Below are positions 2,514 through 26,676 of a stretch of DNA of 64,000 nt, piece by piece (positions within the stretch are counted from its first letter, which is position 1; every line of letters begins with the position of its first letter). Origin of the DNA: Amphiscolops sp. MND2022 (lineage: Eukaryota); NCBI GenBank assembly GCA_964187785.1, contig OZ076414.1, positions 1 through 64,000 on the forward strand, read 5' to 3'. The position numbers and the translations under genes are program-made. The notes beneath the pieces were generated by a model. It was given only the letters and a program-made list of their open reading frames with translations. It had not been told where the DNA came from and did not search any database.

Positions 2514-2567
2514 AGTAGTAAAAGTACGTGGCATTATCGTTCAGAGTAAAGTGAGTAACCAAATATG
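2514..2567 (+). repeat. Left terminal inverted repeat of the Polinton (54 bp)
   Basis: Exact reverse complement of 20574-20627; begins with the AGTAGT trinucleotide repeat typical of protein-primed termini. Confidence 0.97.
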
Positions 2568-2587
2568 ATCATAAGGCCGACTCCAAA

Positions 2588-2680
2588 TGACGTCATGATT
2601 GCGACACAATGACATAACCGAATGCAAAAACATTTAGAATAACGTCACCAATCATAACATTTCATTGGTTGACGAAAAAG
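2588..2680. promoter_or_regulatory. CRE/ATF palindrome and CCAAT boxes just inside the left TIR
   Basis: TGACGTCA at 2588-2595 (within ATGACGTCAT), followed by CCAAT and ATTGG motifs; function inferred only. Confidence 0.35.
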
Positions 2681-2987
2681 AGCGACTAACAAAAGTGGAA
2701 TGGTTTTTTCCATTTAGCAAAGCAAAAACTGAGTCTAAAAGTAGTTAGTTTGCTGGGTGATAAAGTAGTACTTTGCACAAATCCTAATTATCTTGCCTTC
2801 TTCCTTCTAGTGGGATCTGTTGTTATCCAAGTTTGAGCCTCAGCATATCCTCAAAATTCTTTCCTAGTATTTGTGCAAGGGCTACTTTTTGGCAAAAAAA
2901 ACACTGATGGTTCAAAGCGAAAAGTGTAAATTATCTACATTTGTGTTTTCGTGAATAAAACTTGTTTGAGATTAAAGCACAAGATTA

Positions 2988-3194
2988 ATGGATTTTGAAA
3001 ATTTGAGCAATGAGTCTGACAGTCTTGCAACAGACAGCGGTTATGATTCAATGGTTTCATTTGACGAAGATGATGATGGTCTTATGCATCTCAACGTTGA
3101 GGTTGTAGAACTGTTTGAACGCTTGTTGTCATGGCTGGATCAGGTTCAACAAATTGACGACATTTTGCAAGACTGGATGATTGATGATGAGTAG
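2988..3194 (+). CDS. Small acidic Polinton protein (68 aa) with a DSGxxS motif
   Basis: ATG-initiated ORF, very D/E-rich, contains TDSGYDS. Confidence 0.6.
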   Translation: MDFENLSNESDSLATDSGYDSMVSFDEDDDGLMHLNVEVVELFERLLSWLDQVQQIDDILQDWMIDDE

Positions 3195-3296
3195 TATGTA
3201 TGATGATTTCGAAGAATCTGGAAAAGAAATAAAGTTATCATCAATTCTGGCTGAAAGACAAGAAAACCAAACTTTGAAGACTCTTTTAACCTTTTT

Positions 3297-4120
3297 TCAC
3301 GAATCTGACGGACTTTTTCTTTTCCGAGACGCTACTTCAAACTGTTGTGCAAGCGTTTTTGCAGTTTTCAAGTCTTCCATTGTTAGCAAGGGCTCTCCCG
3401 ACGAGTCAACCAGGTCAGGAAATAATTCAGCAAACGTGCAAGTTTTGCTTTGCGTTTTCTAAATAAAAGTAAAAGCTTTACAAACATTCGTGAATTGAAT
3501 ACTCACAGAGGACAAAAGTCAGCTACCATCACTTGTACCTCTAAATCTGAGGTTGTAGCTTTTGAAACTTTGTCTTCGAGCAGTTCCACTTTTTTCAGCA
3601 ATTCAAGCTCCTCCATGTTCAAATTATCAGTGTTCTAAAGCAAAATTAACCTTGTCCATGTCAGAGACTTTTACAGCAAGAAAAAGCAAAGATTACCTTT
3701 AAACTTTGTTCAAGATAGCTACTTGTGGATGGCTTGTTGTTACCATCAGCTTTATCATCCTCAAAGTACCATGCGACCTTGTTTTTATCATCCTCTATGA
3801 ACAATTTCTCCAAAAGGTTCCTTTCTGATTCATCAACTTGGTATTCCGCAGCATCGTCCGGAAACAACACTTTATTTTGTTTGTTACTTTTAGGGGCAGT
3901 ATTTTTTTGACTACCTGTGCTGTCATCACCAAGAGGTGTGTCTGAAACATCATTAATACAAACTCGCAATTGGACTATATTTCACCTCTGGTTGGATTAT
4001 GTTTAAATGTTTACCTAAACCAATAATTACTTGTCTCGTCCTCTTCTTCTCTTTGCGAAAAACAGTAGGAGGAACAGTTGTATTTTTTCGAGTCGGTGGT
4101 GTCCATTCATTGTTAACCAT
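3297..4120 (-). CDS. Predicted 4-exon orphan Polinton gene (202 aa): exons 4120-4015, 3941-3697, 3634-3539, 3458-3297
   Basis: Three GT-AG introns of 73, 62 and 80 nt join the fragments into one stop-free frame ending ...ASRKRKSPSDS*. The donor of intron 3 has an alternative in-phase position. Confidence 0.65.
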
Positions 4121-4212
4121 TTCTGAAAAGTTGATGAGCTTTCGTCGAAACTGAAAGAAAAAAAACAAATATATTCAAACAAGTTTTATAGAGAAAAAAC
4201 TTCAGAGTTATG

Positions 4213-7200
4213 TTATACATTTATTGGGGATGTTGTAACACCATCAGCATGCACAAATCGTTTGTAATAAAAATATGTTATAGACATTTTGTTTTGTTTA
4301 TATGTGAACATGTTTCCTCGGTAGTAGCGAAATCCCTTGTTAGTTCCTTCGTAGGGCACTTTGTTGAACAAGACAGATTTAAATCTTTCCAATGGCGACT
4401 CTAGATTTTTGTTGCTTCCCTTGAGAGCCATTTTCATCTTTTTGTTGTTTTCGTTAAATGCACAGTAGGTTTTGCTGTTGAGACAAATCATTTCCGTTCC
4501 TTTCCATTCAATTTTGAAAAGTCCAGGTGTCCTTTTATCCATTGCACCGTGTTCTTTACAGCAGCTTCGTGTTAGAAAATTCAGTTGAGCATTTGGTAGA
4601 TAGCAATCTTCTTCTTCATGATAATGCTTTGCATTTTCTTGCATTTGTGTCTTTGCAGCCTCAGTGAAACAATCGTAGAGGTCGTTTTCTGTCAAAGCCA
4701 TGTAGAAAGAGTCTGTGTCCATCTCTATAGCCCGAAAAGACCTTGGTCGCATAATTCTGCCGAGAAAGTCGTAACGAAACTCCAACATTCTTTGTTTTCC
4801 ATTGTTTAGTACTGTAAAACCAACGAGAATGGGTTCGTCGTGTACAATTTTTCTTTTAGCCATGTTAATTTCGTATATTTTTTCATCCACAATGTCATAG
4901 GTCCGGAATTTTGGAGAGTTGATTTTTTGATCAACTTTTCTTTCGTCAACAAAAAGCGTGTTTTGAAATTTTGATTTGTTTATAAGTTGAATGCCATATG
5001 CGCTGTTTCCAATAAGTTTGGATGTTTCTGCAATCACACTGAGCGACTTGTCTACATCTCCTCGACGCCTGTTTTCTGTTACAAAATCCAAAAAATCTTT
5101 GAAGGGTTGTGCTTTTTTGTAACAAAGAAACTGGTAGCATTTTGTAACAACCAAACCATGTTCCAAACACCACTTGATGTAGTCGGTAGTTAACATTATC
5201 TTTTCTCCAAAGTAGCTGGCGACAAGACATTTCCAACCGTTTTTCATCAAACCGAATTCTTTGGCATACTCTTGCATTTCCGCAGAAAGATGTTGCCTCT
5301 CGACAGTTGTATTTTTGAAGATGGGCGGAAGTTCTTTAAAGTGTTCCTTCAAGTGATCTGGAACGTGGATGTCAATTTCAGCTAATCCATAAACTTTTTC
5401 TTTCCAAACTGCATTGAGAAATGTCTCCAAAGTTGAAAACTTTTGTGGTAGACAATCAAGTTTTCTCACAAACTCTTTTATTTCCGGGTTTGTTTCTTTC
5501 AGCTGATTCCATTGACACTCCCATTGCTCAATCACACGATATCCTGCATTTAGAATAACTTCCTTACGCTCCTTGTCATTTTCACGTATTATCGCCGGTG
5601 TTTTTCCATGAATTAGAGGCGGCTGAAACATTTAGCAGTATGAAGCACTTCAAAAATAATGTATGATTCATTGTTTCAAAATTTAAATTTTGTCAACTAA
5701 CCAAACTCATACAGTCATGAGCGTGATAATAACATCCCATAAATTCCCAAACAGTTTTACAAGACACACAGATAGCATCGGGAACGAGTGTTCTAACTTG
5801 GTGGCGCAAATTTGTGAAACGACTGGTCACTGAACAACTTGGATTTTGGTCGTGATGATGTTTGGAGATAAAAGCAACATACTGTCGTTCGGCTTGTAAA
5901 AAATTACTTTTTTCGGAAACTAGAGCGTTGTCACTGTTGCAAACGTAATGAGTCAAAGGTCCAGTTGGCATGTTTCCACCAATAGCAGATAAATACAAAG
6001 CATTGGCATCATAACCAACTATTGACTTGACTTTTTCATCATTGATTGCAGTTTCATTAATTTTTTCGTAACGACTAAACACTATACTTGGTCCTCCAAC
6101 AATGTTGTTTCGAACGCTTTGATACAAATCCTTATGTTTATAATTGAACAAAAAAATTCCTTCGCCTTTGTTTGATCGATGTAAAATTTTGTTGGCGGCG
6201 CCACTGAGTGTTAGAGTTTCCTTCAGCAAGTCAATCGAGTGTTGTTGATAGAATTGGGACATTTTGGTCACAGCCTTGTGGAGGGGATAGACATCAAGGT
6301 TATTGTAATATTGTAAATAATCCATCATTGTTTGAAACCCTTCGTGGTCCCATGTTTGTTTAATGTCCTCATATACTTCCAAACCTGTCTTGGGTCTATT
6401 TGGATCGGTGAGGCTGCCTCCGTTCCGAACAAAACTGTTAATCTCGTTCTCCAAAACGTTTTCATTCTTCAGTGAGGAAAAGAATGCTTCGTAGGGTGGT
6501 AATGAAGGTTCTTGTAAAACTTCAAAACTGGTGAGATGTTCGTAAGGAAAGAAAAACTTGCTGACTTCGCTACCGTAGGCTTTCAAAAACTTGTCCAATG
6601 ATGTACCAGCTGCAACAAAATGACTACAGTCCATGAAGCGCAGGTTTGGTGTCGAAAGAAGTAGAAAGCGAGTATTTCGTTTAATACACTTGATAGACGA
6701 CAAGCTAACGAAACGCTGCAGAGACTTTAAAAGGTATGACTTTATCAAATTCAAATCGTAGAATCCACTATTGAAACCAACAATTGGTAGCTGGTCAATG
6801 TATTGTAAGAACTGTGTTCGTGTTCTTTTCAGGAATCTGTGCAATCTCTGCTGTGTGCTGGACACAGTAGTAGTAGCGGTAGTGGTTTCGTTTAGAGCAG
6901 CTTCTTCATCATCTGAGTGTGTGTTCTCTCCCATGGTGGTGTCATCTGGTTCAAAATCTAATAACATTTCATCAATTTTTTCTAGATAGGGTAAAAATTT
7001 TTGTCGCTGGTGAGAGATATTTTTGAGGGACAAGTCCATTAAATAGTCTACAAACTTGTCTACCAAAACGTTAGGGTCTTTCTCGACTAGCCACTTTGCA
7101 GCCGATTCGTCTGTTGTAATGTTTTGATATACTGCAACCGATACGGGAATATGTTGGTGAGTAAACTCCAATTTTTTCGTCTTGATGAAACAATCATCTT

Positions 7201-8695
7201 GGTTTGTATCAAATCCATTTGTTTGCTGTTGTGATGATGACTTTTGTCTCAAAATGGATTCAAAATCAAAAGTAACAAAAGACTTGTAGAATCTATGCTC
7301 ATGCGGAACACAAACATCAAACACGGTCTCTAGCGTCGTGAAAAAAGTGTCAGTGGGCGTGTATTTCCCACCTGGATAGGAGTGATCTGACTTTTCCGAG
7401 CATGACTTTAGATGGCGATTCAATTCAAATAGTCGTGAAAAGTACTGTTCACACTTGATGCACTTGAATCGTCGAAAAAATACGTTTAAATTTCGGATTA
7501 GACAAGTGTGATTATCGACTAGAAGCAGATCAACAAAGTTGGATTGCATGTCCATTTCCAACGACTTACTTCGGTATAACAATTCACCTTGTACTACATT
7601 ATTTACATCAAGTTCGGCTGAAAACACTCGGATGGCGCAAGAACAAAACTTTTCAACGTCTGGCAGGTCCGTCAACTCAATACCGGTAAAATCTTGAACG
7701 TTCTTTTGCACTCCGCGGATGTACATTTGAAAGAGCTCCATTGTTTTAGATTCCAATCCATGCATGGAGTTTTGTTGGAAGGCAGCCAAGGCACGAAATA
7801 CGCAAAGATTATCATTAAGCCTTCCGTTTGTAGATTTGTTGTAGGTAAGCGTCCACACACTCCTTGCGGATTTAATGAAATCCGGAATATCTATTACATC
7901 TTGATCGGTGCTGCCCATTGGCAGGCGTGACAAGTGTGTGGCATGTAGAGAGACGTTGGTTAAACAGAAGAAAGTCCATTTTGTGCTGTCGCGAAAGTTT
8001 GTAAAATTCTCGATGAAGTCAGTGCTGAAAATGTCTTGTTTTAACAGTTTGAATTGTTCAAAGTTCTCTACCAGCCTTGGTTTGGGTAGGACTGTTGTAT
8101 TGTCACTTGAGTAATAGTACCGATATTCGCCAGTTTCGTTGTTTGAGAGAATGTATCCAAAACTGACATTCATTTTGGATACCCTAGTTATTTTTGCAAA
8201 AGCTTCATCGAGTACATTACAAATATTATCAATCCCTTCATCCTTCAAAAGAAAATTGACAGTTGTTTGGTGGGGTAGCAAAACAATTTGATCTCCCATA
8301 ATATGTCTCTTTCTACGAACAAGTTCTTTCAGTGATTCATCGTCCCCAAATTGGGCATCGTTCAGTTGAGAATTTGGTGATTTTAACATTTCATGTTCGG
8401 TATGTGTATGTTGTTGCAACTTGAGCATTGTTGCAAAGGTTGAATCACAGTAGCCGCATTTGAAGTTTTTCTTTTTCACATGCTTCAGAGATTTATGAGT
8501 GTTGAGGTCTTGGCTACTTTTTGCAATGTAGTTGCACTGTCCACAGTGTAAATCATCCTTGTCATGTGTCTTTTCATGTCGGTTTCGATTGTATTTGCGC
8601 GAAAACTCTTTTCCACATTTACTGCAAACAAAAGTTACAACAGATTGCTGAGAAGTTGAAGGAGTTGCTGTAGTTGCGCCATCAGACGACTGCAT
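4213..8695 (-). CDS. pPolB: Protein-primed family B DNA polymerase with N-terminal C2H2 fingers, split by a 79-nt intron (5701-5623)
   Basis: ExoI FDFES, ExoII FNSGFYD, ExoIII YNNLD; polymerase motifs A YDANALY, B KLIGNSAYG and C MDTDS. ORFs 5693-8788 and 4213-5631 are out of frame but join in phase 0 through GTTAGT...TGTTTCAG. First ATG is at 8695. Confidence 0.95.
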
Positions 8696-8882
8696 CGTGA
8701 TGAATAAGGAGCAGCAGCACTTGCCGTCGTTCTTTCGGGAGAAATTCAATCTAAACAAGTGTCTGTTTGTTACTACAAATTCAAACAATTTTCAAAGTTT
8801 TCTGGTAACTCCTGAATTTGCTGTGGGTAAACATCAGACAAACAAGTTTTGTAACAAAAATAAGCAGTGCAAATATCACATC

Positions 8883-9284
8883 ATGCTTTATGGTTTTGAC
8901 GATATACAAAAAAAGTTGATGCATTTGAATTATGATTTTGAAAATGTAAATTGTCCCTACAGTTATTTCAAATTCTTTATTATTCTTTCGGAAAAAGTTG
9001 TTTGTATTCATGGAAACTTCCTGATGGAACCTTTGTTATTGGCTACCAGACACAATCGTATACATCGAAGCAAAGAATGTGTCACGAGTCTACTTTGGAG
9101 ACGGATTGGTCGGAAAAAAAGGAGACGACACTCACCAGCAACAACCAACAGAGGTCCACAACACACTATAGCGTCGCTGATGAATATTGTTCAAATGCAG
9201 ATTGTTGTCGTGAGTAGTCTATTGGAATTTTTGCAACAGAATTCTTCATCTGAAATTTCCACCAACACCACAATAACCGAGTAA
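8883..9284 (+). CDS. Hypothetical Polinton protein (~133 aa)
   Basis: ATG at 8883 within ORF 8697-9284; first ORF of the + strand gene array; no recognisable motif. Confidence 0.4.
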   Translation: MLYGFDDIQKKLMHLNYDFENVNCPYSYFKFFIILSEKVVCIHGNFLMEPLLLATRHNRIHRSKECVTSLLWRRIGRKKRRRHSPATTNRGPQHTIASLMNIVQMQIVVVSSLLEFLQQNSSSEISTNTTITE

Positions 9285-9397
9285 TTTTCCTTTGCAAGCC
9301 TACCTTGCCAATTCAAATCATTACCTTTGTTCACTACCTACAGTTCAGTTGTTATTTGCTGATTCAAAAAATTTTGACAAAATAAAAAATTTTCATC

Positions 9398-10027
9398 ATG
9401 GCATCAACTGCTGTCATCAACCCTGTTGATTGTAAAGTGTTGAAATGTTTTAAAGTTGAAGTTAGTACAAAACGTTACCTTTTAATTACCGTTAAAACCT
9501 ATCCGTCTTCTTCAGAAAGCTACACAAGTATTCAACTGTTCAAGTTAGATGAAGAGACAAAGGAATACACACCACAAAAATATTTGACTCTCAAGTTTCA
9601 AGAATTAAACAAAATTCCTTGGGACGACGTTTACACCAACGTTGTCAATGTCTTCGACTTCTCACTAGACGTTCGCATGCCCTACCACAAGAATGATATG
9701 GACTATTTTGACTTCATCTTTGATATTCAAGACTTTATCTCAAACAAATCGAGAGTCGTCAGAGTAGCTTCCAAGCGTTATCCTCAAGCTACCTACTTGT
9801 ACTTAAAACTGTTTATTCAACATCAAAAGCGCTGGAAAATGCAACAAACAATAGACATTTCTTGGATGGAGCTATCTCATTTATTGAACGTTGTCAAAGA
9901 GATTCAGAGCTACCCAAATGGAATACCTAAAGAAGGAAGTCCAATCACAGAGACTGGCTTATTTCGTCCAATCGCAACATTGACTAACCCAGAAATCACC
10001 AGCAGCGTCAATAGCAACAGCCATTAA
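9398..10027 (+). CDS. Protein with two tandem PC4-like (ssDNA-binding) repeats
   Basis: Internal duplication: KRYLLITVKTY..YTSIQLFK..LTLKFQELNKI versus KSRVVRVASKRY..YLYLKLF..IDISWMELSHL, resembling the PC4 strand-strand-strand-helix pattern. Confidence 0.55.
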   Translation: MASTAVINPVDCKVLKCFKVEVSTKRYLLITVKTYPSSSESYTSIQLFKLDEETKEYTPQKYLTLKFQELNKIPWDDVYTNVVNVFDFSLDVRMPYHKNDMDYFDFIFDIQDFISNKSRVVRVASKRYPQATYLYLKLFIQHQKRWKMQQTIDISWMELSHLLNVVKEIQSYPNGIPKEGSPITETGLFRPIATLTNPEITSSVNSNSH

Positions 10028-10087
10028 CAAATTTTTTGAGTGCTTCATTACCTCTTTTACTCTTACAGAATTTGGTTGCTTGCTAGC

Positions 10088-10693
10088 ATGATGGCTGATT
10101 TCAACTACATTATCACGTTTGTATTGGATGTGGAGTTTTTAGAAGTTGACGTAGTTAAAGAAATTAGTGTAACCACACCGTATCACTCTGTATCTTTATC
10201 ATTCAAACCTCCCAGACCATGGAAAGATCTAACCCGTGAAGAACAACTGGAATACAACAACAATAACAACACTCTCAATGTTCCGTGGGATGAAGGCGCT
10301 ATTGACTATAAGGAACTGAGGAACGCTGTATACACCCTCATTCCACCAGGAGTCATGAAGTATGCAAAAGGAGTGCAAAAGTGTGACTTTTTCTCTCGTT
10401 TTTTCCTTTTCAAAATTCACAATTTGGAAGACATGGGCTGCCCCGACGCCTCTGCAATCCAACATTTGATAAATAATACGGAGAACAACAACGACGACGA
10501 CGACGACAAGGAGAACAGGCCATTGTGTCCCAATTTTCCCAAATATCCCAATCATTATGAAAAATGTGCGGCCATCAATAGTAAGCTTTATCTCAAGTGG
10601 TTAGCCAATAAAATTAAAGAAGACCCTGCTGCTGCAGAAATGGCGCGAAAGACTTCCCCGCTGCGCAACAATGCAACACTCACACTCATGTAA
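10088..10693 (+). CDS. Putative DEDD/DnaQ-like nuclease (Polinton accessory gene)
   Basis: VLDVEF acidic motif, FKPP.PW, YAKG..K, NLEDMGCP, and C-terminal C..H..CA..N. Confidence 0.5.
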   Translation: MMADFNYIITFVLDVEFLEVDVVKEISVTTPYHSVSLSFKPPRPWKDLTREEQLEYNNNNNTLNVPWDEGAIDYKELRNAVYTLIPPGVMKYAKGVQKCDFFSRFFLFKIHNLEDMGCPDASAIQHLINNTENNNDDDDDKENRPLCPNFPKYPNHYEKCAAINSKLYLKWLANKIKEDPAAAEMARKTSPLRNNATLTLM

Positions 10694-10722
10694 TTATCAT
10701 CATCATTTGTTAAATTTGCAGC

Positions 10723-10986
10723 ATGACTGATCAGCCGGATCTTGCAGTGCAAGAGTTCGTTTTTGATGAGAATAACCAAGAACGCAAGCCTTGGACAATT
10801 TGCGGCAAGCCTATTCCACGGTCCGAAATTGTCTTTTTCAGTCAATTACTTGTCATTCTTATGGTTATCTCATTTTGCATTTTCAAACTTTCTGTATCAT
10901 CTTCAAACGATAAAGACAAGCCGGTTTGGATTGCCTTGCTGGCCAGTGCACTGGGATCTATTCTACCCCATCCGACACTGAAATGA
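10723..10986 (+). CDS. Small two-helix membrane protein
   Basis: Two hydrophobic segments (IVFFSQLLVILMVISFCIFKL; VWIALLASALGSILP); resembles small membrane proteins of Polinton-like viruses. Confidence 0.7.
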   Translation: MTDQPDLAVQEFVFDENNQERKPWTICGKPIPRSEIVFFSQLLVILMVISFCIFKLSVSSSNDKDKPVWIALLASALGSILPHPTLK

Positions 10987-11717
10987 ACAAGGTCATTCCC
11001 ACTGACAACCATGTGTTTATGTCTCTTGTTGGTCCATCCGGCTCTGGAAAGACTACTCTTTTGTATAAACTTTTAACATTGCCAGTGTTTCAACCAAGGT
11101 ACCAATCTGTAATTTTTTTCTATCAACATTATCAAGAAGCGTACGAAAAACTGAAGCGAGATGTTGCCGAAATTGAATTCATACAAGGACTAGACTTTGA
11201 TTTGATCAATCAATCATTTACACATGACGGAAAAAAACGCTTGCTAATTTTTGATGACTTTTCAGAGGAACTTTTAAAATCTAAAGATTTCACTCGGATT
11301 GCTACCGCTGGTAGACACTTGGGCTTGCATGTTTTGTATATTAAGCATAATTTATTTCATAAATCACCCATTGGAAGAGACGTAGAGTTGCAGTTGACTC
11401 ATATTGTGCTTTTTCAATCTCCCCGTGACATTAATCAAATTGAACGACTTGGGCAACAGTTGGGCAAGCAAAAATTTTTACCTCTATGCTATAAGGATGC
11501 CACATCCAAACCTTTTGGATTTCTCATGATTGATCTGTCACCCAAAACATTGGACATTTTACGATTTTGTACAAATTTGGAGCCAACAGTTTTCTATATA
11601 CCCAGTGAAAAGGCCCGCATTACAGAAATTGACGATGACTACACAACAAGTTATTACGCTGCAGCATTTCAAGAGTCTTTCACTGGCCGACCGGTTGGAC
11701 ATGTTGAAAAGATGTGA
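10983..11717 (+). CDS. A32/FtsK-like genome packaging ATPase
   Basis: Walker A GPSGSGKT, Walker B LLIFDD, conserved GRH and HNLF motifs. Confidence 0.95.
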   Translation: MNKVIPTDNHVFMSLVGPSGSGKTTLLYKLLTLPVFQPRYQSVIFFYQHYQEAYEKLKRDVAEIEFIQGLDFDLINQSFTHDGKKRLLIFDDFSEELLKSKDFTRIATAGRHLGLHVLYIKHNLFHKSPIGRDVELQLTHIVLFQSPRDINQIERLGQQLGKQKFLPLCYKDATSKPFGFLMIDLSPKTLDILRFCTNLEPTVFYIPSEKARITEIDDDYTTSYYAAAFQESFTGRPVGHVEKM

Positions 11718-11940
11718 GGACAATTTCATTGAGTTTCTGGCCGAATCAGTTGTAAACATTTTGCAAGGTGTAGTGCCCGGAATCAGGCGGAAAGACATTG
11801 AAAAGTTCAAGCCACAAATTGTGCGAATCATTTCGACCAAAGCAACTCTTGCGGAACAGCGGGCCATATTCACTTCCCGAAAGGGGCTCTTGTTGCTAGA
11901 TGTTATTATCGAGCATGTTATTCAATACTTTTTAAGTTAG
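11635..11940 (+). CDS. Small conserved Polinton protein downstream of the ATPase
   Basis: FIEFLAESVVNILQG...K..I.R pattern typical of this gene position; ATG at 11635. Confidence 0.6.
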   Translation: MTTQQVITLQHFKSLSLADRLDMLKRCEDNFIEFLAESVVNILQGVVPGIRRKDIEKFKPQIVRIISTKATLAEQRAIFTSRKGLLLLDVIIEHVIQYFLS

Positions 11941-11945
11941 TAGTA

Positions 11946-12670
11946 ATGGAATTGAAAAAATTTGTATTGATACCTTTTTCACAGTACAAGAGTCAATTGG
12001 CATCGAGTAGGCCTGTCAGCACAGTATTGTACGATTCAAAATTGACCAATGAGGAAAAGACTAAAATTTTGCCTACATTGGACCGAAAAAAAAGAGAGCT
12101 GCTGCTGTTGTAAGCACGCCTACCACCACACTGGTCACTGCTAGCACCGTACCTGCAAGTGGTAGTAGTAGTACAACAAAGACTATTGATCGTCAAAAAG
12201 AGGCAATTTTGTTGGATGTGGGTGGAAGCGAAACTACTCAAAGACGTAGCGCTTCGTTGTACGACAAAATTTTGTCTAATCCAAAAATAGAATTGACAAG
12301 TGAAGGTACAATTAAGCTGGAAAATTCCGACACAGACATTCCTCTCAGCACATTTTTATATAGATTACAGAATCCTTTTCCAAAAAGTAGTCCAGTAACA
12401 CGACAGTTTTTGGACATTGTTGAAAATGTGAAAATCCCCGAACACTTGATTGCAAATCAGTCTCTGTTGAAACATCAAAGAAGTAGACAAAATAAAGCTC
12501 CTCCTCCTCCTCTCGGTGGCTCGGACGACGACGCCGACGATGACGAAGAGGACTTTGAAAGCGTCGACGAAGGTGCAGGTAGCAGCAGCAGCAGCAGCAG
12601 GGCAACAAGCGGCAAAGAAAAGAAAGGAAAAGAATGGTATTCAGTCAAGGGCGAAAAGAAACAATTTTGA
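11946..12670 (+). CDS. Conserved Polinton protein split by a -1 frameshift at an A8 run (12086-12093)
   Basis: MELKKFVLIP...EEKTKIL (11946-12113) continues in the -1 frame without stops into ORF 12209-12670 (LYDKILSNPKIELTSEGTIKL...IPEHLIAN). Confidence 0.65.
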
Positions 12671-13598
12671 AAAAGACAGAGAAAAAAGGTTGTTGGAAAA
12701 GGCTTGGAAGAGTGGCTTCTCAGCGTATGGATCGCGCCAAAATTTGCAAAAAGCTACAAAATTGTCCGTGAAAAAAGTTGATGACTTTTTGCAAGGTAAA
12801 AACTCCTACACAAAATTTTTCATTCCCCAGCGTAGATCCTATCCCCGATTGACAACACTTGCTTTCGACATTAACGACATTTGGTGCATGGACGTTGCTT
12901 ACGTCGATAAAATTGCCATGCCAAATGATGGTGTAAAATTTTTACTAGTCTGTGTAGATGTCCTGTCACGCTACTTGAGAGTGGAACCACTGAAGCGACT
13001 GACATCTGTTGCTGTGAAAGATGGTCTAGTTGCCATGTTGAATAAATGCCCGACAGTACATCCCAACAAAATTTGGACCGATCAAGGTCGAGAGTTTGAG
13101 GGAGAATTTCGCAAGTTTTGCAAATTTGTTGGAATACACCAATATAATTCGTTCAGTGGTACAAAAGCAGCATTTGCTGAGCGAGCCATTAGAGCCTTGA
13201 AGGCCCAAATTGTTCGGTATCTCGAAGAGGAATGGATGTGGCGCTATATTGACAAGTTGCCAGACTTTGTAAAAACTCTCAATGACCGTGTGAATCGGTC
13301 AATTGGTATGGCACCGTCAAAGGTTGAGAAAAAGCATGTGCTCAAACTTATCGCACTTAAACAAAGGTCTGCAGTGATGAAAGAAAAAAAGGCCAAGTAC
13401 AAGGTGGGCGACCTTGTACGCATTGCTTCAAAGAATGTGCCCTTTAGAAAAGGATATCTACAACAGTTTACAAATGAAATTTTTTCAATTTCCACCGTGT
13501 TCTCCACTCATCCACCGTCTTACATTTTGCGCGATGAAAAAGGCCAAGAAATTCAGGGCAAATTTTACGAAGCTGAGATTATTAAAGTACTTAAGTGA
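12540..13598 (+). CDS. Retroviral-type (rve) DDE integrase
   Basis: Catalytic triad in WCMD / WTDQGREF / AERAIR; C-terminal YKVGDLVRI...FY..E. First ATG at 12540. Confidence 0.95.
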   Translation: MTKRTLKASTKVQVAAAAAAGQQAAKKRKEKNGIQSRAKRNNFEKDREKRLLEKAWKSGFSAYGSRQNLQKATKLSVKKVDDFLQGKNSYTKFFIPQRRSYPRLTTLAFDINDIWCMDVAYVDKIAMPNDGVKFLLVCVDVLSRYLRVEPLKRLTSVAVKDGLVAMLNKCPTVHPNKIWTDQGREFEGEFRKFCKFVGIHQYNSFSGTKAAFAERAIRALKAQIVRYLEEEWMWRYIDKLPDFVKTLNDRVNRSIGMAPSKVEKKHVLKLIALKQRSAVMKEKKAKYKVGDLVRIASKNVPFRKGYLQQFTNEIFSISTVFSTHPPSYILRDEKGQEIQGKFYEAEIIKVLK

Positions 13599-13640
13599 AA
13601 AGAATACATTTCACAAATCATTTTTTAGCTCTAATCGACA

Positions 13641-14105
13641 ATGAGTGGTTCATTCCACAAACAAAACCCATTAAACAATTATTACCGTGGTCCCGTTAGA
13701 CAAAGAGGAAGTGGCATTGGTTCTTTAGCCCTCAAAGTTGCACGTCATGCACTACCACTTTTGTCCAAATACGTGTTGCCTTCTGCCAAAAGAGTGGGAA
13801 AAGATTTTGCTTTGAATTTGTTGCCCGAAGTATTTGATGTTGTCACTGGTCGTGGTGGTGAACCAGCAACAACTTCAAGCATTAAAAAGGCAGTGAAGCG
13901 GGCAGCGGGGAAAACAGTAAAGAAACAATTGGGCACTGGTGGTGCAGCAAAAAAGAAGAGACGACGACAGTCAGTTGGAAAGAGTTCCAAGACCAAAAAC
14001 AGTCGCACAGCAAAAAAGGGCCGCAAAAAACAATCAGGAGGCAAAACAACAACAAAAAAGACTCAAAAACGCAAAAAGATTGACATTTTTCAAAACTTGC
14101 CTTGA
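13641..14105 (+). CDS. Basic pVII-like DNA-condensing core protein precursor
   Basis: YYRG..RQRGSGIGSL N-terminus and K/R-rich C-terminus; QxGxG/QxGG motifs. Confidence 0.75.
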   Translation: MSGSFHKQNPLNNYYRGPVRQRGSGIGSLALKVARHALPLLSKYVLPSAKRVGKDFALNLLPEVFDVVTGRGGEPATTSSIKKAVKRAAGKTVKKQLGTGGAAKKKRRRQSVGKSSKTKNSRTAKKGRKKQSGGKTTTKKTQKRKKIDIFQNLP

Positions 14106-14140
14106 CGGTCAATAACATTCGTAATATTGTTCTCAAAACA

Positions 14141-15442
14141 ATGACAACGACGACGGCGGCGCACATAATACCTAAACCGGCAACCCACTCTAGTCTGGAC
14201 ATTTTTTCTAAGCCAGAAGTGCTAGTGTCTTTTGACAATTCTTTTGAACAAGAAACGTTGCCAGTCACTGCACACGATGCACCAGTTTTTGAGTTTGTAC
14301 TCACCACTGATCGAAACATTTACTTGGATTTGCAAAGCGTCGAATTAAAGTTGGAGGCAAAAATTGGAAAGGGCGCCAATGGCAATACTAATTTGGAGAC
14401 GGAGTTGGCTGGAGGCAACACTGTAGCTAAAGCAACCGACAAAGTCAGCTTCATCAACAACACTCTACACTCCTTCTTTTCCAATTGCGACATTTTAATC
14501 AACAATGAAATTGTACACACGTCCAACAATTTGTATGCACAGAGAGCTTTTGTTGAAACGGAACTGTCCCACACACAGGGCTGTGCCACAACAAAGCTCA
14601 TTACGCAAGGCTACAACTTTGAGCCCGCCACCGGTGATATGCTTGCCCACCGAGAAACATGGACCTTAGGCTCCGCTTCAAAGACATTTTATGGAAAACT
14701 GGCGGTGGATTTCCTGGCATGTGATCAACTTCTCATTCCCAATTGTTCTATGCGAATTCGACTGACACGGAACAAGCCCGAATACTTGCTGCAAAGTGCT
14801 GTCACCAACCCTGCCTTCACCCCAAAAATTGAACGAGTGTCAATTTTTGCTCGTTACTACACTGTTGCAGAAAACTATCACGTCAATTTACAACGATCTC
14901 TACTCAAGTGGCCTGCTAGATACAACTATTTTGAAGTACGCAGCAAGACATTTGTGATTCCAAGGGACCAAAGTCATTTTATTCGTGAAGACATTTTCAA
15001 TGCAGAACCCATTAGACGCATGGTACTGGCCATGTGTCCCAACAATCAGTTTACTGGACGTTGGACAGACACTCCGCTCGCATTCCACAAACACAATTTG
15101 AAGAAAGTGCGAGTATTGCGGAATGGTGTACCAGTGGTGGAATATAGCACAAGTTCCAACACTCAACTGTACTTTAAGACTATTCAAAACCTCCATTTTG
15201 ATCAAGACGGTCCCTTAATCAAGTTGGACAATTATGAAAATCACTACTATCTAGTTTTCGACCTTACGTCCACACAACAGTGCAATCAAGAAATTTACTA
15301 CCCCGAAATTGTGGGAGCACCAATACGGATCGAGCTCGAATTTTCGACCAACACTAGCACGCCTTTGGAGCTGTTTGTGCTGGGAGAACGATTTACAACA
15401 GTTCAAATTGATCATACAGGAAAAGTGTTGAAACATGGATAG
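14141..15442 (+). CDS. Double jelly-roll major capsid protein
   Basis: SSLDIF..P, FINNTLHSFFSN.DI.IN, LIPNC.MRIRL and F.LT motifs; ~433 aa; located between the core protein and protease genes. Confidence 0.92.
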   Translation: MTTTTAAHIIPKPATHSSLDIFSKPEVLVSFDNSFEQETLPVTAHDAPVFEFVLTTDRNIYLDLQSVELKLEAKIGKGANGNTNLETELAGGNTVAKATDKVSFINNTLHSFFSNCDILINNEIVHTSNNLYAQRAFVETELSHTQGCATTKLITQGYNFEPATGDMLAHRETWTLGSASKTFYGKLAVDFLACDQLLIPNCSMRIRLTRNKPEYLLQSAVTNPAFTPKIERVSIFARYYTVAENYHVNLQRSLLKWPARYNYFEVRSKTFVIPRDQSHFIREDIFNAEPIRRMVLAMCPNNQFTGRWTDTPLAFHKHNLKKVRVLRNGVPVVEYSTSSNTQLYFKTIQNLHFDQDGPLIKLDNYENHYYLVFDLTSTQQCNQEIYYPEIVGAPIRIELEFSTNTSTPLELFVLGERFTTVQIDHTGKVLKHG

Positions 15443-15863
15443 TGCAGCCTTGCTACAAGTTATTTCCAAAAGTCCCGCACTAAAATATCGATACTTGGGT
15501 TGCTTCGACCCCAATACTTTCATTTTCCCAATGCCAATAGACACTTTTCAAATTGTAAACACCACTACAGACGTTGAGGGACATTGGATAACGTTGATCC
15601 GCTTATCCAACGGCTTTCACTATTTTGGAGATTCCCTGAAAGCAACAAGCTTGAATCAGTACCCAATGTTGTTTACCCGACTGCCACCACCGCCAGAACA
15701 GAAAAAGACAACAACATTATTTCTACCTTTGAACACTTCAATAAAGCAGGTCGATTCCTTGTGTGGTCTCTATTGTATTTATTTTGCATGGAACTTATTT
15801 GATAATACACCTAAAGTAACGAATGATTTTGAATTGTATCAATTGTTTTGTAATCTTTTATAG
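15435..15863 (+). CDS. Adenain-like cysteine protease
   Basis: IVNT...GHW, YFGDS and Q...SLCGLYC catalytic motifs. Confidence 0.92.
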   Translation: MDSAALLQVISKSPALKYRYLGCFDPNTFIFPMPIDTFQIVNTTTDVEGHWITLIRLSNGFHYFGDSLKATSLNQYPMLFTRLPPPPEQKKTTTLFLPLNTSIKQVDSLCGLYCIYFAWNLFDNTPKVTNDFELYQLFCNLL

Positions 15864-15897
15864 AAAAAAAAATGTTTGTAAAGAAAGTTTTTTTTTT

Positions 15898-16797
15898 TCA
15901 AACAGTAATTGCAGGCACATGTTTTTTACGAAAATGTAAATTTAAAACTACAAGTCCCAAACTGGTAAAGGGAATTAATTTTCCCTTCATATCTCGAATC
16001 TCAATCTGTATACTATTGAAATTATCCAAACAAACATTTCGATACTGCAAATTGGAAAAGGATCGGTTGTCGTAAGGGTATATGACAATCAAATCCTCAT
16101 TTTTCGTTCGTTGACGAAATGTGAAGGCACGTAAAAGTTGGTTCTTCACATTGCCCACGTTACTAAAGTCTACAATATCACTGTATACAAAAATTGTGTG
16201 AAAACGTGCGATATCACAAGGGTAGGGAGCAATGATTTGGTTGGCTTCACAGTACACAGCATCCGTTCCCAATCCCAAAATTTGAGCCAAGTCATCACTT
16301 TGAATTTTGAAGTATACACGGCTCTGTCCTTCTGTAGTTCCTTCAAACGTGAATGAAAGGTTCAAAGTTTCCTCGTTGTAAGCAAAGGTCATTGTCCTCT
16401 CCATGTTTGTAAAAGTAGCAATTTGAGAATTCATTGCGTCAATAATTTGACCAATTTCTGTGTAACAACCCTTTGGAATGTTAAAAGAACGATATTGATT
16501 CAAAAAGGGCACATCTGGATAACTATTTATAAGTTCCTTGCTGACAGTATCAGGTTTGTTTACAACAACGCGATATCGTTGAAGAGTCGGTGTAGGAATA
16601 TAGCCTAGCGTGAATTCACCGTCTGTGACATTGTATACTCGGTTTGGGAACGAAATGTCTGTGAGTGCAACTTCCCATTCACTGCCTCTGCCCAAATTGA
16701 TTGGATTTGACATAAAGTTTGAAAAAAATGCCAGAGTATTATTTGGATAAATGTCCAAACTTGCATTAGACAATAGATCAATATAAAAGGAAGTCAT
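15898..16797 (-). CDS. Minor capsid (penton-like single jelly-roll) protein
   Basis: FY..L.SNAS...YP.N, WEVAL.DISFP, FVYSDIV...VG...LLR and LHFRK motifs. Confidence 0.9.
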   Translation of the reverse strand: MTSFYIDLLSNASLDIYPNNTLAFFSNFMSNPINLGRGSEWEVALTDISFPNRVYNVTDGEFTLGYIPTPTLQRYRVVVNKPDTVSKELINSYPDVPFLNQYRSFNIPKGCYTEIGQIIDAMNSQIATFTNMERTMTFAYNEETLNLSFTFEGTTEGQSRVYFKIQSDDLAQILGLGTDAVYCEANQIIAPYPCDIARFHTIFVYSDIVDFSNVGNVKNQLLRAFTFRQRTKNEDLIVIYPYDNRSFSNLQYRNVCLDNFNSIQIEIRDMKGKLIPFTSLGLVVLNLHFRKKHVPAITV

Positions 16798-16854
16798 CTT
16801 TAGGGAACTGGATAGGAAACACAGAATTTGATTGAATGAGAGTCACTCACTCAT

Positions 16855-17499
16855 TCATTCATCTTCACTGCTGCTGCTGGAGCCAATCATCAGCTTTACC
16901 CTCTTTAGATTTTTCTTTTTTGGTTGGCGACAACATTTTTCGTCGTCGTCGACATCCGCCGATGCTATAGTTTCTGCGTTGCTATCTGTATTATCGGATA
17001 TCGACCAATAAGATCGTAAGGATTCTTCGTATTCTTGTGTTCCCAACTGATTCTCCGTAATGGGCACTAGCGTGTTTTCCAAACGATTGAACTCTCTTCT
17101 CAATTCCAGACTCAAACAACCTGGATGTGTGCACTCCATTTCTTTCCAGTCATACGTTTCCAACAACATCAAATCAACAGAGTATTGGCGGGGCAGTTGT
17201 GGCGGACTAGGAGCTGTCAAGTCAAAAACACTTTGGTTGTCAGTGTCACTTTCTCCTTGCTCGTCGTCGTCGTTGTCGTCGTCGTTCGATCTGAGCATTT
17301 TTTTTGCAGTATCAACTGTAACTTGAGCACTAATTAAGTGTAATAAATGAACCGGTAGGAGAAAAGACTCAACAATTTTCCATTCATCATTTGTTGCTGA
17401 GTTTTTCACTTCCTTTATTAGGATTGCCGACGCTCCGAAATGTGTCTTGTAGGCAAATATACGTTCGACGTCAATACGTTGTGTGAATATGTAAATCAT
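16855..17499 (-). CDS. Hypothetical acidic Polinton protein (~214 aa)
   Basis: Open ORF from the ATG at 17499; D/E/S-rich tracts; no family recognised. Confidence 0.55.
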   Translation of the reverse strand: MIYIFTQRIDVERIFAYKTHFGASAILIKEVKNSATNDEWKIVESFLLPVHLLHLISAQVTVDTAKKMLRSNDDDNDDDEQGESDTDNQSVFDLTAPSPPQLPRQYSVDLMLLETYDWKEMECTHPGCLSLELRREFNRLENTLVPITENQLGTQEYEESLRSYWSISDNTDSNAETIASADVDDDEKCCRQPKKKNLKRVKLMIGSSSSSEDE

Positions 17500-18349
17500 T
17501 GTTTCCAACAACAACAAAATTATTCTGAAAACAATAATGTTAAAACTACTGCAAAAAAAACAACAATCATTTTGTGTTAAGGAGATTCAGCAGTGACCAG
17601 TAGAATGGATGAGAGCTCCTTTCTTGAAGAAGCGTGTTTTTATTTGATGGGAAAAAGTTTATAAAAATTATACATTCTAATGCAAAAATTTTTGCAGTGT
17701 GGAAAAAGGGCAGAATTTGCTATGTTACGTTGATCATTGTGAATCTTGTATAGTTGTCGGGTGGTAAACAAGAGCTACTCTAACTGCTATTCTCAGTCAA
17801 TAAAGATGAAAACAAAAAAAAGTTTTGAAAAAAAAATTCAGAACAAAATATTGAGTGAACCCTAGACATGGGCACATCAAATTCGTCTAATTTTTCGTCC
17901 CGAATCTAAATTTCGCATCAAAACGGCATTTCTCGTAAAATTGGAGTTTTTCAAAATTTTTGCCCCATGGGGGGATTTTTTCCCTTTCGGAAAATAATTT
18001 TTCAAGAAGGTTTTTTTTCGTCTTTCCAATGATATATATGACGATGGGTGTTCATGATAGTCATTGACAAGTGAAATTTCGAGTTTTAAAATTGAAAAAA
18101 AAAGACTGAAACTAAGTTTTTCCGTGAGTCAAGACCATGCATTCATGTTTAAATTTTAATTCCAACCAGAATATGTCAATGAAAGCGCATTTCAGAGTTT
18201 TTCATTTTTATCCATGATAAGGGGTTGTTGACGTTCCAGTTTTAACGTTAAACAAAGTAGTAATTGATTATGTACAAAACTAGATTCAAATCCAAAAAGT
18301 GAGTCTTGAAGAATGTTACTGTTAAATGAAGAAAAGTACAACTTAGCTA

Positions 18350-19041
18350 TTAGTTGTTTTTGGGAGACGCCAATTGGAGAACATCGAGCAAAGTTCGTTC
18401 CAAAAACTGCCGAGTGTAGTGAAATTGGTCAGTCATGTCGACACCTCTGGTACGCATCTTGTGCACGTTCAAAGATTTGCACTTTTCGAGCTGTTTCTGC
18501 AAAACTTTATCGACCCTTTTTTTGTTCGAATTGGGAAGAAGTTGATTACGTCTCGCCAGACCAATCACTAGTTTGACACCTTTCGTTTTGCAAACTCTGT
18601 TCCATAGCATTAGTTTTTCCGTAAGGTCTTTAGGTGACAGTGTCGAAACACTATTGTTCCCTTAAACACATTGTTTCCCAATCAACTATCATTTTTTATC
18701 GCAAAAAAACTCAATTTTGTTGCTACGGGACAACAGGGTTAGGGTTAGGGTTAGGGTTAGGGTTAGGTTTGAAAAAAAAACAACTAACTTGGTGGCATTG
18801 TGAGTGAATTGTAGAGAATGTCGGGAAAGATAAAGACGAACTGACACCCTGGTCGAGAAAGGGCTCGGAACAACAAGGAGTCAAGTGTAGGTTTTGAAAA
18901 GTTTTGTTTAGAAGAGGAGGAGGAGTATTCATGACGACCGCCACTTTCGGCGAGAATTTGGATATGTTTATAATGAGATGAATCCTTAATGATTCTACAA
19001 AGATTTGAAGCACCAATAACAATCGCGTGCTTTATTTCCAT
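18350..19041 (-). CDS. Predicted two-exon SGNH/GDSL-like hydrolase (187 aa): exons 19041-18789 and 18660-18350
   Basis: Block I IVIGASN, block II SGG, block III LYNS, block V DQFH (DxxH). A phase-1 intron 18788-18661 (GTTAGT...TTTAAG) joins ORFs 18784-19125 and 18350-18610 in frame. Confidence 0.72.
18736..18767 (+). repeat. Interstitial telomeric repeat GGG(TTAGGG)4TTAGG
   Basis: Read directly from the sequence. Confidence 0.97.
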
Positions 19042-19151
19042 GAAACCTGAAAACAGATGATGTGGTATTTGAGAGTCAGAGCAGAATAGTTTTGGTACTA
19101 GAACAAATCGTGCAAGCACAGACAAAAACGAAAAACATGCAAATAATTATA

Positions 19152-19505
19152 TTAAAGATTGTTCTTTGTACAGTAGAGTTTGTAGGAACTATCTACACGT
19201 TTTTGGAGGGCCTGGAGGATACCCTTATCAAGGGTACCTTTCCTCCAGGCCTCCAGACATGCGCGCAGGAGCCCGCGCTCATGCTTTCTCATCGCCCAGA
19301 AGGCGAAAAGATCGAGCACGGGCTCCACTGTTACTCCTTTGATGTACGAGTGGATTCCCTGCAGCGAAAAGTTTGTGAACGTTAACATTTGAGAGGAAGT
19401 TTCAACGGCCAAAAGCTCTAGAAAACAAAGATTGAACAACCTACCTCGTCGCCGATCAACATGGTCAAAACGTCGCAGGTGTCCCTTGACACCTCCAAGA
19501 GACAT
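19152..19505 (-). CDS. Hypothetical Polinton ORF (117 aa), overlapping strong hairpins
   Basis: ATG-initiated ORF upstream of the SGNH gene; no motif. Confidence 0.35.
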   Translation of the reverse strand: MSLGGVKGHLRRFDHVDRRRGRLFNLCFLELLAVETSSQMLTFTNFSLQGIHSYIKGVTVEPVLDLFAFWAMRKHERGLLRACLEAWRKGTLDKGILQALQKRVDSSYKLYCTKNNL

Positions 19506-20573
19506 CCGGACCTGGGCCTCTGGTTGATGAGGCCCCAGGCGAAGTGATCTATTTTATCCAGTTCACTCCACAGAAGCATTTTTGATTTTTTAGTTTATGT
19601 GGGTATGTGTGGGTGAACTGAGGTTTTCAAAGTTTTGAGCACAGAATGAATTTTTGAGCTCGGTAGGCTCAACTCTTTTTTCAAGACTCCAAGCACCTCC
19701 TTCGGTTTCTTTCCAGTTTCACTTTTATCTGGGAAACATCAAAGATTTTAACCCAGGCGAAATTTCCATATCTAATCATTTGGAAACTCGGATAAATAAC
19801 CACATTCACTTTTTAGGGCCCATAAGACCCGGATCAAAGGCTCCGCTATCTTTTGAACCTGTTTTCAAAGTCTTGCAGGGTCCACCTTAATTCCTTTGAA
19901 ATTCGGAACCCACTAAATTTGAGTTGCCAAGTGATGAATCAAAGAAAAGACCGACACTCTGTTAATTGGCATTGTCTTTTCAGTTATAATTAACAAAAAA
20001 ATGTTGCCTTCACAATTCCAAAACAAATTAAAAGGCATTTTGATTGCTTTTTTTCCAAAAATTTAGCATTTTTTCCCGACATTTTCATGTTTTTTTCAGA
20101 CATTTTAGGTCATTTTGTCTCTTTACAGAATGTGAAAATTCGGTGTAAAAAGAAGCTGGGATGATTTCCATAAGCTTGCTGGAATAGTTAATGACTGTTT
20201 CCATTACGCAAATGAAGGCAATATCAGGGAAATTTGTTCCACAGCAATCACACTTCTAAAGAAAGGTAATATAATCTAAGAGCACATTCATTTCAAAGTT
20301 GCTAGATTAAAAGAATTTTTATTGATTCCATTTCCTTTCATCCCATCTGCGTTCCATTTCCATTCCTAACAAACCACTCCTTCCATTTTTATTACTTTCC
20401 AGCACGCCAAGGTAAGGAACTTTCCTTTCATTGCCTGAAATACGAACAAAAATTTATCGGGCCTGTATTTTGTTTTCGGATTTTGTTCGGCTCTCGGTGA
20501 GTATTTTCATATTCGGATACGTCATGTTCGTATCGCAAATATTACGTAACGTTTCAGAAAGTTTTGTGATCAC

Positions 20574-20627
20574 CATATTTGGTTACTCACTTTACTCTGA
20601 ACGATAATGCCACGTACTTTTACTACT
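20574..20627 (-). repeat. Right terminal inverted repeat of the Polinton (54 bp)
   Basis: Exact reverse complement of 2514-2567; followed by GACAAT. Confidence 0.97.
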
Positions 20628-21540
20628 GACAATCATGTGGCTGGCGGTGAACATGCCAGATATGCGAAGTTGGAGCTAACAGAAAACCAGCACTTTTCAG
20701 CCAATCAGATTCTCGAAAGTTGTAAACATAAAACGCAGAAAGGTTGGTCACATTAACATGTGTAGTTCTGTAAAAATGTATGCCCCCCACCACCGAAATT
20801 TTTTGAAAGTGAATTTCCTTAAAAAGTTCAGACTAGCCTAATTAAATAAAAACCTTCTTTCATAACCAGAAGTTAACGTCTATTGGAAGTTTTTTGTTTG
20901 AACAAAACATTTTTCACACATTTTGACTATAATTACGCTCTTTTTTTTGTTGAAGTTGTTGATTTTTTTTTATCGATAATGCGTGGCTTCATACACAAAA
21001 ATAGTGTGAACAAAGTTTTTATCTCAATTGTAAACTGTCACCCATGGAAATAAATTCAAAACTGAAGGTTTCTGGTTTGTATTCAAGTCTTTTTCTTACA
21101 ATATTCCCACTAACTTTCCAAGAAAAATTGGCGGTGGGGGGACAGAAAAGAGCCAAAGTGCATATTTGGGTAAAACATTTGCCTGAGAAGTTGATTGATT
21201 TTTTCACAAATGAAAAACATGAAAAAGGTCACGTTTCATTACTGCTTAAAAGAATGCTGTCAAAAATTATTTTGTCTCTGAATCTAACTTCACTTATTTA
21301 ATCAACATTTTGTTGAACAGGCAAAACATCTACGGGCGGGTTTTTACTGGGCCTCAAAGATGCGGGAGCTTCCAGTGAAACCAAACTCACAGCTCGTGCA
21401 GTTTCGACGCCTGCGGTTCAACATGTTTTAATTGACTCGAGCACGAACGAGTTTTGGACAAGGGACCCTAAAGTGTCTGATTTGATTGGAGCAAATTTCG
21501 AAGGTGCTCCACTGATAGAAACACACAAGTTAGTGTAAAT

Positions 21541-26324: not shown

Positions 26325-26676
26325 TATGATTTTCTTAGCAATTTTGCTGATTGGAAAAGTCGACTAGTTTGAGTGAGATTTCAGAGTGGAATGAATTCAC
26401 CAACTCAAAAATTTAGTCGACTCGGACCTTTTCCCGGCAGTTCGTTTTTGGCGGTTGAGTTTTCGGTAAATCGTCCTGATCCGACGTAAACATTCCTGAA
26501 TGGAATTTTATAATTAGTCGGCAACCTTTGATAATACGGTGTTTACCCTTCATCAGCACCATCAATCTGAGATGTGTTAATGACGCTTGAGTTGTAAGTA
26601 TTATCTCCACCCGTTTCAAGTGGGTAATTAACAGTTTGCCTGAGAGCGATTAACGGCACGCGACGCGGAATTCTTT

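Follow-up and report, generated by a model that had tools for sequence, protein, structure and literature searches.

The first 64,000 nucleotides of contig OZ076414.1 from Amphiscolops sp. MND2022 (GenBank assembly GCA_964187785.1), hereafter called the window, contain a complete Polinton/Maverick element of 18,114 bp (2514-20627, no strand assigned), which is designated family A. Comparison of its copies makes it very likely that the element belongs to a recently transposing multi-copy family, in which the polymerase gene pPolB and two accessory genes carry true spliceosomal introns. An earlier note, made from the letters of this DNA alone, had described an intron-rich Polinton with five introns in three genes, which annotation by open reading frames (ORFs) would mistake for a pseudogenised fossil. 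All five GT-AG segments (79, 73, 62, 80 and 128 nt) exist, restore stop-free frames and have phases that add up, but the third donor of the small accessory gene likely lies at 3526 or 3532. Moreover, the term intron-rich suits the accessory genes, whereas a single core gene is interrupted, by a single intron; the genes for the ATPase, integrase, capsid and protease have no interruption.

The element is bounded by inverted repeat arms of 59 nt each (2514-2572 and 20569-20627; 97% complementary) with the termini AGTAGT...ACTACT that are typical of Polintons/Mavericks. Both ends are flanked by the 6-bp target-site duplication (TSD) GACAAT (2508-2513 on the plus strand and 20628-20633), and sister copies carry different TSDs. 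DNA searches of the host genome yielded 124-139 candidates per region, of which 40 were scored for each region (87-100% identity); these numbers are lower bounds. Each of the six near-identical sisters has a perfect 6-bp TSD of its own; the 13 other pairs in this comparison did not match the strict end probe. Of 40 copies fetched, 25 more could be seen at both ends, and 23 of them have a TSD with at most one mismatch. These insertions indicate that family A jumped recently with its introns in place.

The interrupted polymerase gene

On the minus strand, pPolB is predicted to consist of a first exon of 998 codons (5702-8695) and a second exon of 469 codons (4213-5622), which are separated by a phase 0 intron of 79 nt (5623-5701; GTTAGT...TTTCAG). 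Exon 1 encodes C2H2 zinc fingers, the exonuclease motifs, motif A and the first half of a VSR-like domain, and exon 2 encodes polymerase motifs B and C (the motif names are those that we presume to apply). The junction is located inside the VSR-like domain; motif A precedes it, and motifs B and C follow. A profile built from pPolB homologues matches the Vsr endonuclease among known structures (E 5e-6). For exon 2, 1111 homologues were found at E<=0.001, and PF03175 is present on many of the 120 listed; direct Pfam searches gave no match on exon 1 or exon 2. By sequence comparison, the gene is thus assigned to the protein-primed family B polymerases of Polintons/Mavericks. A 194-codon frame on the opposite strand (8652-9284, plus) begins about 5 nt from the pPolB start codon, back to back with it. 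Shared changes favour this frame, and the 5' ends of its transcript and of the pPolB transcript must overlap.

The ends of the pPolB intron are kept in all copies (GT 55/55, AG 55/55), and its length varies from 77 to 80 nt across 39 copies. Among the indels common to at least three of these 39 copies, all five exonic ones are multiples of 3, and the two intronic ones both shift the frame. Changes were regarded as shared when they occurred in at least three copies relative to the window. The ratio of nonsynonymous to synonymous changes per site (pN/pS) was 0.18 for shared against 0.79 for single-copy changes in exon 1 (Fisher p 1e-25), and 0.13 against 0.98 in exon 2 (Fisher p 1e-17). Judged by these ratios, both exons are under purifying selection. 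A continuous pPolB frame was not found in family A: the longest frame in 40 copies has 1043 amino acids, and the family matches of another search reached at most 492 amino acids. The possibility of a copy-specific insertion, which the earlier note had raised, is excluded by the copies, as GT and AG are kept across them and none has a continuous pPolB.

The segments in the three genes behave alike: their ends are conserved, their interiors vary in sequence and length, and the exons keep the frame once the third donor of the small accessory gene is corrected. Furthermore, the ends are of the U2 type, with GT-AG, a host-like donor and a pyrimidine-rich acceptor. The split pPolB gene is not the result of pseudogene decay, because the segments behave as spliceosomal introns of a recently transposed family; selection on both pPolB exons and the recent, TSD-flanked copies uphold the claim that the split pPolB is no fossil. 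Pairwise comparison of eight introns revealed no convincing likeness (best uncorrected p 0.02 in 28 pairs), the host genome outside Polintons not having been searched for copies. Frame restoration alone is a weak argument, since a frame-restoring GT..AG pair within 9 nt of both ends of the pPolB junction was obtained in 25% of 5000 shuffles.

For comparison with the host, 64 introns were predicted by homology from 20 stretches of dynein heavy-chain genes. The commonest host donor is GTTAGT (6/64) and the commonest host acceptor is TTTCAG (11/64), so that the proposed comparison with host introns holds for the end motifs, but not for the lengths, which lie far below the host median. The hexamer GTTAGT was also correctly reported to recur, at 5701, 18788 and 29904 (plus strand, near the end of a Gypsy ORF); however, with eight occurrences in the Polinton its recurrence alone means little.

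Relatives of pPolB bear on the age of the intron. Of the uninterrupted homologues, 122 of 125 were alignable across the junction, where they differ from family A by -15 to +10 residues (median +3) and never by the +26 expected from read-through. Since the database proteins in this set had been selected for continuity, a survey of DNA weighs more. The sister family B, which resides in the same genome and shows 37-39% identity, has continuous pPolB frames of 1,441-1,510 codons; its elements (L103-L112, L117-L121) are about 17 kb long, have AGTAGT ends and differ from family A in gene order. With pPolB exon 2, 80 metagenomic loci were found, of which 48 cover the junction: 42 are continuous, five have other breaks and one, L286, has an intron. 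The five broken junctions (L296, L307, L338, L344, L337) were rejected as introns and represent frameshifts, stops or mis-assignment.

The pPolB of L286 shares 43-59% amino-acid identity with that of family A and contains, at the same phase 0 junction, a segment of 69 nt with the ends GTAAGT...TTTTAG (L286:2767-2835). The 27 residues that follow are collinear with family A, and then a second GT-AG segment of 62 nt (2915-2976) occurs, which is absent from family A. The intron sequences of L286 and the window are not alike. An acceptor-like site is also present after the stop codon of L286. In a quick IQ-TREE run (35 of 127 rows, midpoint-rooted, without a one-clade test), L286 and family A form a pair with 100% support in the Shimodaira-Hasegawa-like approximate likelihood ratio test (SH-aLRT), on a long stem surrounded by continuous relatives; about 1.06 changes per site separate the two. 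Searching G000 with P0131 revealed no close family. The simplest and most likely reading is a single gain of the pPolB intron on the long stem that family A and L286 share.

The genes of the element would be transcribed in the nucleus by the host RNA polymerase II, and the host spliceosome would remove the 79-nt intron to give one pPolB frame of about 1,470 codons, so that a complete polymerase would depend on it. Without splicing, translation would meet a stop codon three codons inside the intron, leaving a protein of about 1000 amino acids without motifs B and C. The intron would be copied at each round of DNA-to-DNA replication of the element and would persist in the family because there is no RNA intermediate to purge it.

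The accessory genes

The accessory gene close to the right end (18350-19041, minus strand) is predicted to consist of exon 1 (18789-19041), with an acceptor-like TTTTCAG 5 nt before the ATG, a phase 1 intron of 128 nt (18661-18788; GTTAGT...TTTAAG) and exon 2 (18350-18660). The intron keeps GT in 48/48 and AG in 49/49 cases (49 of 58 loci were usable), and its length ranges from 115 to 155 nt across 30 loci. For exon 2, pN/pS was 0.18 for shared against 0.99 for single-copy changes (p 0.008); selection on exon 1 points in the same direction (p 0.13). Besides T-runs, the intron contains (TAACCC)n repeats; this telomere-type repeat (18735-18766) varies by 6-nt steps among the copies. In exon 1, a serine-codon repeat differs in length by multiples of 3, the largest gain being +72 nt.

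This gene had been labelled SGNH. A Pfam search gave no match on either exon, and a low-confidence model of exon 1 with a predicted local distance difference test (pLDDT) score of 55 gave generic alpha/beta matches, with an ORF1 esterase of a long interspersed nuclear element (LINE) among the ties (Z 4.2). The SGNH clusters of the Atlas reached only 0.81-0.82. The SGNH/GDSL identity of the putative product is thus unconfirmed. Of nine database relatives, three either terminate or continue past a common 'PP/AQ-S' point, which concerns protein letters only and was not counted as proof. For neither accessory gene were homologues of exon 2 found among longer proteins, which is weak evidence. Moreover, scans of IMG/VR yielded no relatives, the Atlas search with P0134 no matches, and a PDB sequence search with the exon 1 alignment no usable match.

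The small accessory gene (3297-4120, minus strand) is predicted to have four exons and to encode a product of about 202-206 amino acids that belongs to no known family. Exon 1 (4015-4120) and exon 2 (3697-3941), both translated exon by exon, are separated by intron 1 of 73 nt (3942-4014; GTAAAC...TTTCAG), which has shared changes at 24 of 69 inner positions. Exon 2 is followed by intron 2 of 62 nt (3635-3696; GTAATC...CTTTAG), and in both introns a quarter to a third of the inner positions carry shared changes. Exon 3 (3527-3634) could end at 3539, 3533 or 3527, all in one frame, and the third intron (3459-3526) leads to exon 4 (3297-3458). With the acceptor at 3459, the donor likely lies at 3526 (68 nt) or 3532 (74 nt) rather than at 3538 (80 nt). 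Indeed, GT is kept at 3526 in 66/67, at 3532 in 66/67 and at 3538 in 34/67 copies (acceptor AG 64/67), and the donor at 3538 changes to GA or AA among the copies without loss of the frame. Intron 3 is thus probably 74 or 68 nt long, not 80 nt. A donor score derived from host introns gave 5.3 for 3532 and 1.4 for 3526 in the window copy.

It is conceivable that the introns in pPolB and in the gene at 18350-19041 are real and that the small gene was over-fitted from AT-rich DNA by means of chance GT-AG pairs. Of the competing explanations this one survives best, and it is nevertheless improbable. The small gene has no homologue in family and homologue searches, none of its exons is significant alone in selection tests, the donor at 3538 fails in half of the copies, and the shuffles mentioned above restore a frame in 25% of cases. 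By contrast, introns 1 and 2 keep their ends (GT 67/67 and AG 67/67 in intron 1; GT 64/65 and AG 65/65 in intron 2) despite variable interiors. Moreover, the pooled pN/pS of the gene was 0.42 for shared against 0.81 for single-copy changes (p 0.014), and intron 3 varies from 79 to 85 nt, counted with the 80-nt boundaries, by frameshifting indels, while the exons mostly keep the frame. Overall, the small gene has moderate support.

A spacer (4123-4211, minus strand) separates the pPolB stop codon from the small gene, which it precedes. It contains acceptor-like AGs at 4151 and 4123, which are kept in 63/67 and 67/67 copies, respectively. At 4211, 57/67 copies have a donor-like GT, with AT instead in 10 copies as well as in the window copy; the loss concerns the youngest subfamily, which comprises the window copy and its six closest sisters. 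Judging from these positions, the spacer is possibly an intron in the 5' untranslated region, which would be the sixth intron, or a trans-splice acceptor.

Alternative explanations and possible trans-splicing signals

Several observations weigh against the presence of true introns in a working family. The splice-site scores are moderate when compared to other GT/AG sites in the Polinton (top 0.1-9%). The Polinton introns are far shorter than most of the host introns predicted, which have a median of about 655 nt and of which 4/64 are under 130 nt; a packaging limit might favour short introns. Shared changes were not mapped on a tree. In pPolB exon 1, two stops are apparently shared, each by 13 copies; there are also one frameshift common to 5 copies in exon 2 of the small gene, and four exon frameshifts common to 3-6 copies in the gene at 18350-19041, which, given these shared frameshifts, may be dispensable in cis. 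The same holds for the lack of homologues of the small gene and of significance for its single exons. Finally, the L286 contig has a frameshift upstream, and the evidence for the shared intron position comes from this one contig.

It is very unlikely that the two halves of pPolB are made as separate proteins from a message that is not spliced, with translation of the second half starting at an in-frame ATG that lies 9 nt ahead of the acceptor. The window copy and 33/55 copies have this ATG, and purifying selection on both halves is expected either way. However, it is absent in 22/55 copies, 16 of which share GTG, while the AG is kept in 55/55. Moreover, the break would bisect the VSR-like domain, and L286 lacks an ATG at this position and has a second break 26 codons further on.

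Equally improbable is a non-autonomous family, in which old insertions killed the genes in an ancestor and family A has been mobilised in trans by the intron-free family B. In line with this idea, a family with continuous pPolB and AGTAGT ends is present in the same genome, and both pPolB exon frames are open in only 9/40 family A copies. Yet dead genes would yield neither pN/pS values of 0.13-0.18 for shared changes nor shared exon indels in multiples of 3. Furthermore, the chance that all 18 splice-end positions escape shared change at the rates of the inner intron positions is about 0.011, and decay leaves the same junction in L286 unexplained. Ribosomal frameshifting, read-through or self-splicing introns as a bridge over the gaps have a negligible probability, as no single shift fits a pPolB segment with in-frame stops and lengths of 77-80 nt, Rfam families have no match anywhere in the Polinton, and the segments measure 62-128 nt and have GT-AG ends.

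Spliced-leader (SL) genes in the host and acceptor motifs ahead of several start codons of the element hint at SL trans-splicing. An SL sequence has been published for the acoel Symsagittifera roscoffensis (PMC9911081). The host genome contains 2077 matches to the acoel SL, many of which are in tandem arrays; these matches point to that species or a close relative as the likely host. In the array units, the leader is followed by GTAAGT and a U-rich Sm-like site, as is characteristic for SL RNA genes. One tandem array of such units (L378, G000:C1 at about 16.23-16.42 Mb) has a period of about 904 bp. Dispersed leader exons (L233, L238, also L234-L237) lack the donor of SL genes, and in L233 a LINE-like frame for ORF1 and endonuclease, identified by eye, begins with the leader, which suggests that the dispersed exons are retrocopies of trans-spliced retrotransposon RNA. 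The six dispersed leader loci gave no match to the Polinton.

Acceptor-like sites occur just before several ATGs of the Polinton; they are conserved at 4151, 4123 and 19047, and the one at 17549 is the best-scoring in the element. At a score of 7, which is one of four thresholds, such a site precedes 4/16 first ATGs against 35/605 other ATGs (p 0.014); this weak enrichment was not significant at thresholds 5 and 6, nor in a rank test (p 0.10). Two of six short spacers beat shuffles (p 0.01 and 0.02), and one lacks an AG. In family B, the acceptor motif is present ahead of some genes only. Trans-splicing would use the unpaired acceptors just upstream of the start codons at 4151/4123, 19047, 17549/17525 and 10721. 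It is no more than a tentative proposal that the Polinton lineage might be an RNA-processing-dependent resident of acoel-type genomes, combining polymerase introns with SL trans-splicing of tightly packed, probably polycistronic transcripts. If this were true, splicing would lock the host range of a virus-like element and switch it on or off, and Polinton polymerases would have gained introns repeatedly in different animal hosts.

Uninterrupted genes, known systems and implications

The remaining core genes of the element are continuous except where stated. On the plus strand, they comprise the A32-like packaging ATPase (10983-11717; Pfam Pox_A32, E 4.7e-10), the retroviral-type integrase (12471-13598; Pfam rve, E 1.5e-11), the major capsid protein (14141-15442) and a likely protease (15435-15863), which we take to be of the adenain type from its motifs; the minus strand has a likely, presumed minor capsid protein (15898-16797). 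An AlphaFold model of the major capsid protein (pLDDT 70) matched the capsids of PBCV-1, an iridovirus, Sputnik and mavirus in Foldseek (E 1e-15 to 1e-12, best 2.7e-15), according to which the protein has the double jelly-roll fold of Polintons/Mavericks. The putative protease and minor capsid (penton) frames have no Pfam or PHROG match, and they show 33-36% identity to family B and metagenomic elements (35% and 33%, respectively, to the family B genes). Upstream of the integrase lies a gene that we presume to be PW-like (11946-12670, plus). In the window copy and in 2/6 near-identical sisters, its frame breaks within an A-run near 12,090, most other copies being unbroken there; either true slippage or a fault of the assembly may be the cause. 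Near the left end, a short acidic frame (2976-3194, plus) without a Pfam match has shared indels that are mostly multiples of 3.

A fragment of a reverse transcriptase that is not of the long terminal repeat type (Pfam RVT_1; 1134-2568, minus) adjoins the left end of the Polinton. To the right, a Gypsy-type element (23617-42376) contains reverse transcriptase, RNase H, integrase and protease frames interrupted by stops, long direct and inverted repeats, and large antisense frames (27361-31629). The last part of the window (56000-64000) has a strong positive GC skew (0.2-0.5) and many short minus-strand frames.

Adenoviruses, which share a related capsid and protein-primed polymerase lineage, use the host spliceosome without integrating. 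Their splicing mostly joins leaders to long reading frames, in contrast to the removal of a short intron from the middle of a polymerase that is proposed here. Among the animal (adintovirus-like) Polintons/Mavericks, a close comparison is with vertebrate Mavericks, which resemble the window element in size (about 18 kb), (AGT)2//(ACT)2 ends, inverted repeats at the termini and a TSD of 6 bp, as well as in pPolB, integrase, A32-like ATPase, double jelly-roll capsid, likely protease and minor capsid, and accessory regions at both ends (PMC8097293). However, intact vertebrate Mavericks are reported there to lack introns, 'intact' being defined by intronless ORFs, whereas none of the family A copies examined has an uninterrupted pPolB, and the family is nevertheless under selection. 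Nematode Mavericks are similar in having intron-bearing accessory genes near a terminal inverted repeat; their core genes including the polymerase are described as intronless, and the introns are found in host-derived cargo (bioRxiv 2022.07.12.499685). In family A, by contrast, a core replication gene carries an intron, and the accessory genes belong to no known host family.

Spliceosomal-type introns inside full-length Maverick-like proviruses are also known from dinoflagellates, where, according to the excerpted text, they are introners, about 90% of which are consistent with insertion after integration, and neither splicing nor selection on the viral genes is put to a test (PMC11957031). 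Unlike these repeated, transposon-derived introners, the introns described here are mutually dissimilar and fixed across a replicating family. A pPolB with an inserted VSR nuclease domain has been described for Polintons of marine nematodes and molluscs; the window intron lies in the corresponding VSR-like region, and the available sections of that paper mention no intron there (PMC10748475). Cryptophyte polinton-like viruses carry group I introns (PMC12220804). In the literature searched, with subscription journals, Repbase and supplements lying outside the search, no paper was found to describe spliceosomal introns in the polymerase of a Polinton. The comparison of copies and relatives gives good support to a functional Polinton family in which the core polymerase carries an intron that is old and fixed.

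A family with a fixed, selected polymerase intron means that the intronless-ORF test for intactness can discard working elements. The suggestion of the earlier note that functional Polintons may be overlooked applies to screens for intronless ORFs, but surveys based on tBLASTn (PMC10748475) would still find the element. The polymerase intron further indicates that the message would be made in the nucleus by the host machinery, unlike that of a virophage in a giant-virus factory. It would also provide an assay for whether and when Polintons are expressed, as a read across the junction marks a transcript and not genomic DNA. Moreover, intron-bearing and intron-free families in one genome, together with a relative that has two introns, may serve as a natural experiment on intron gain in a DNA virus lineage.

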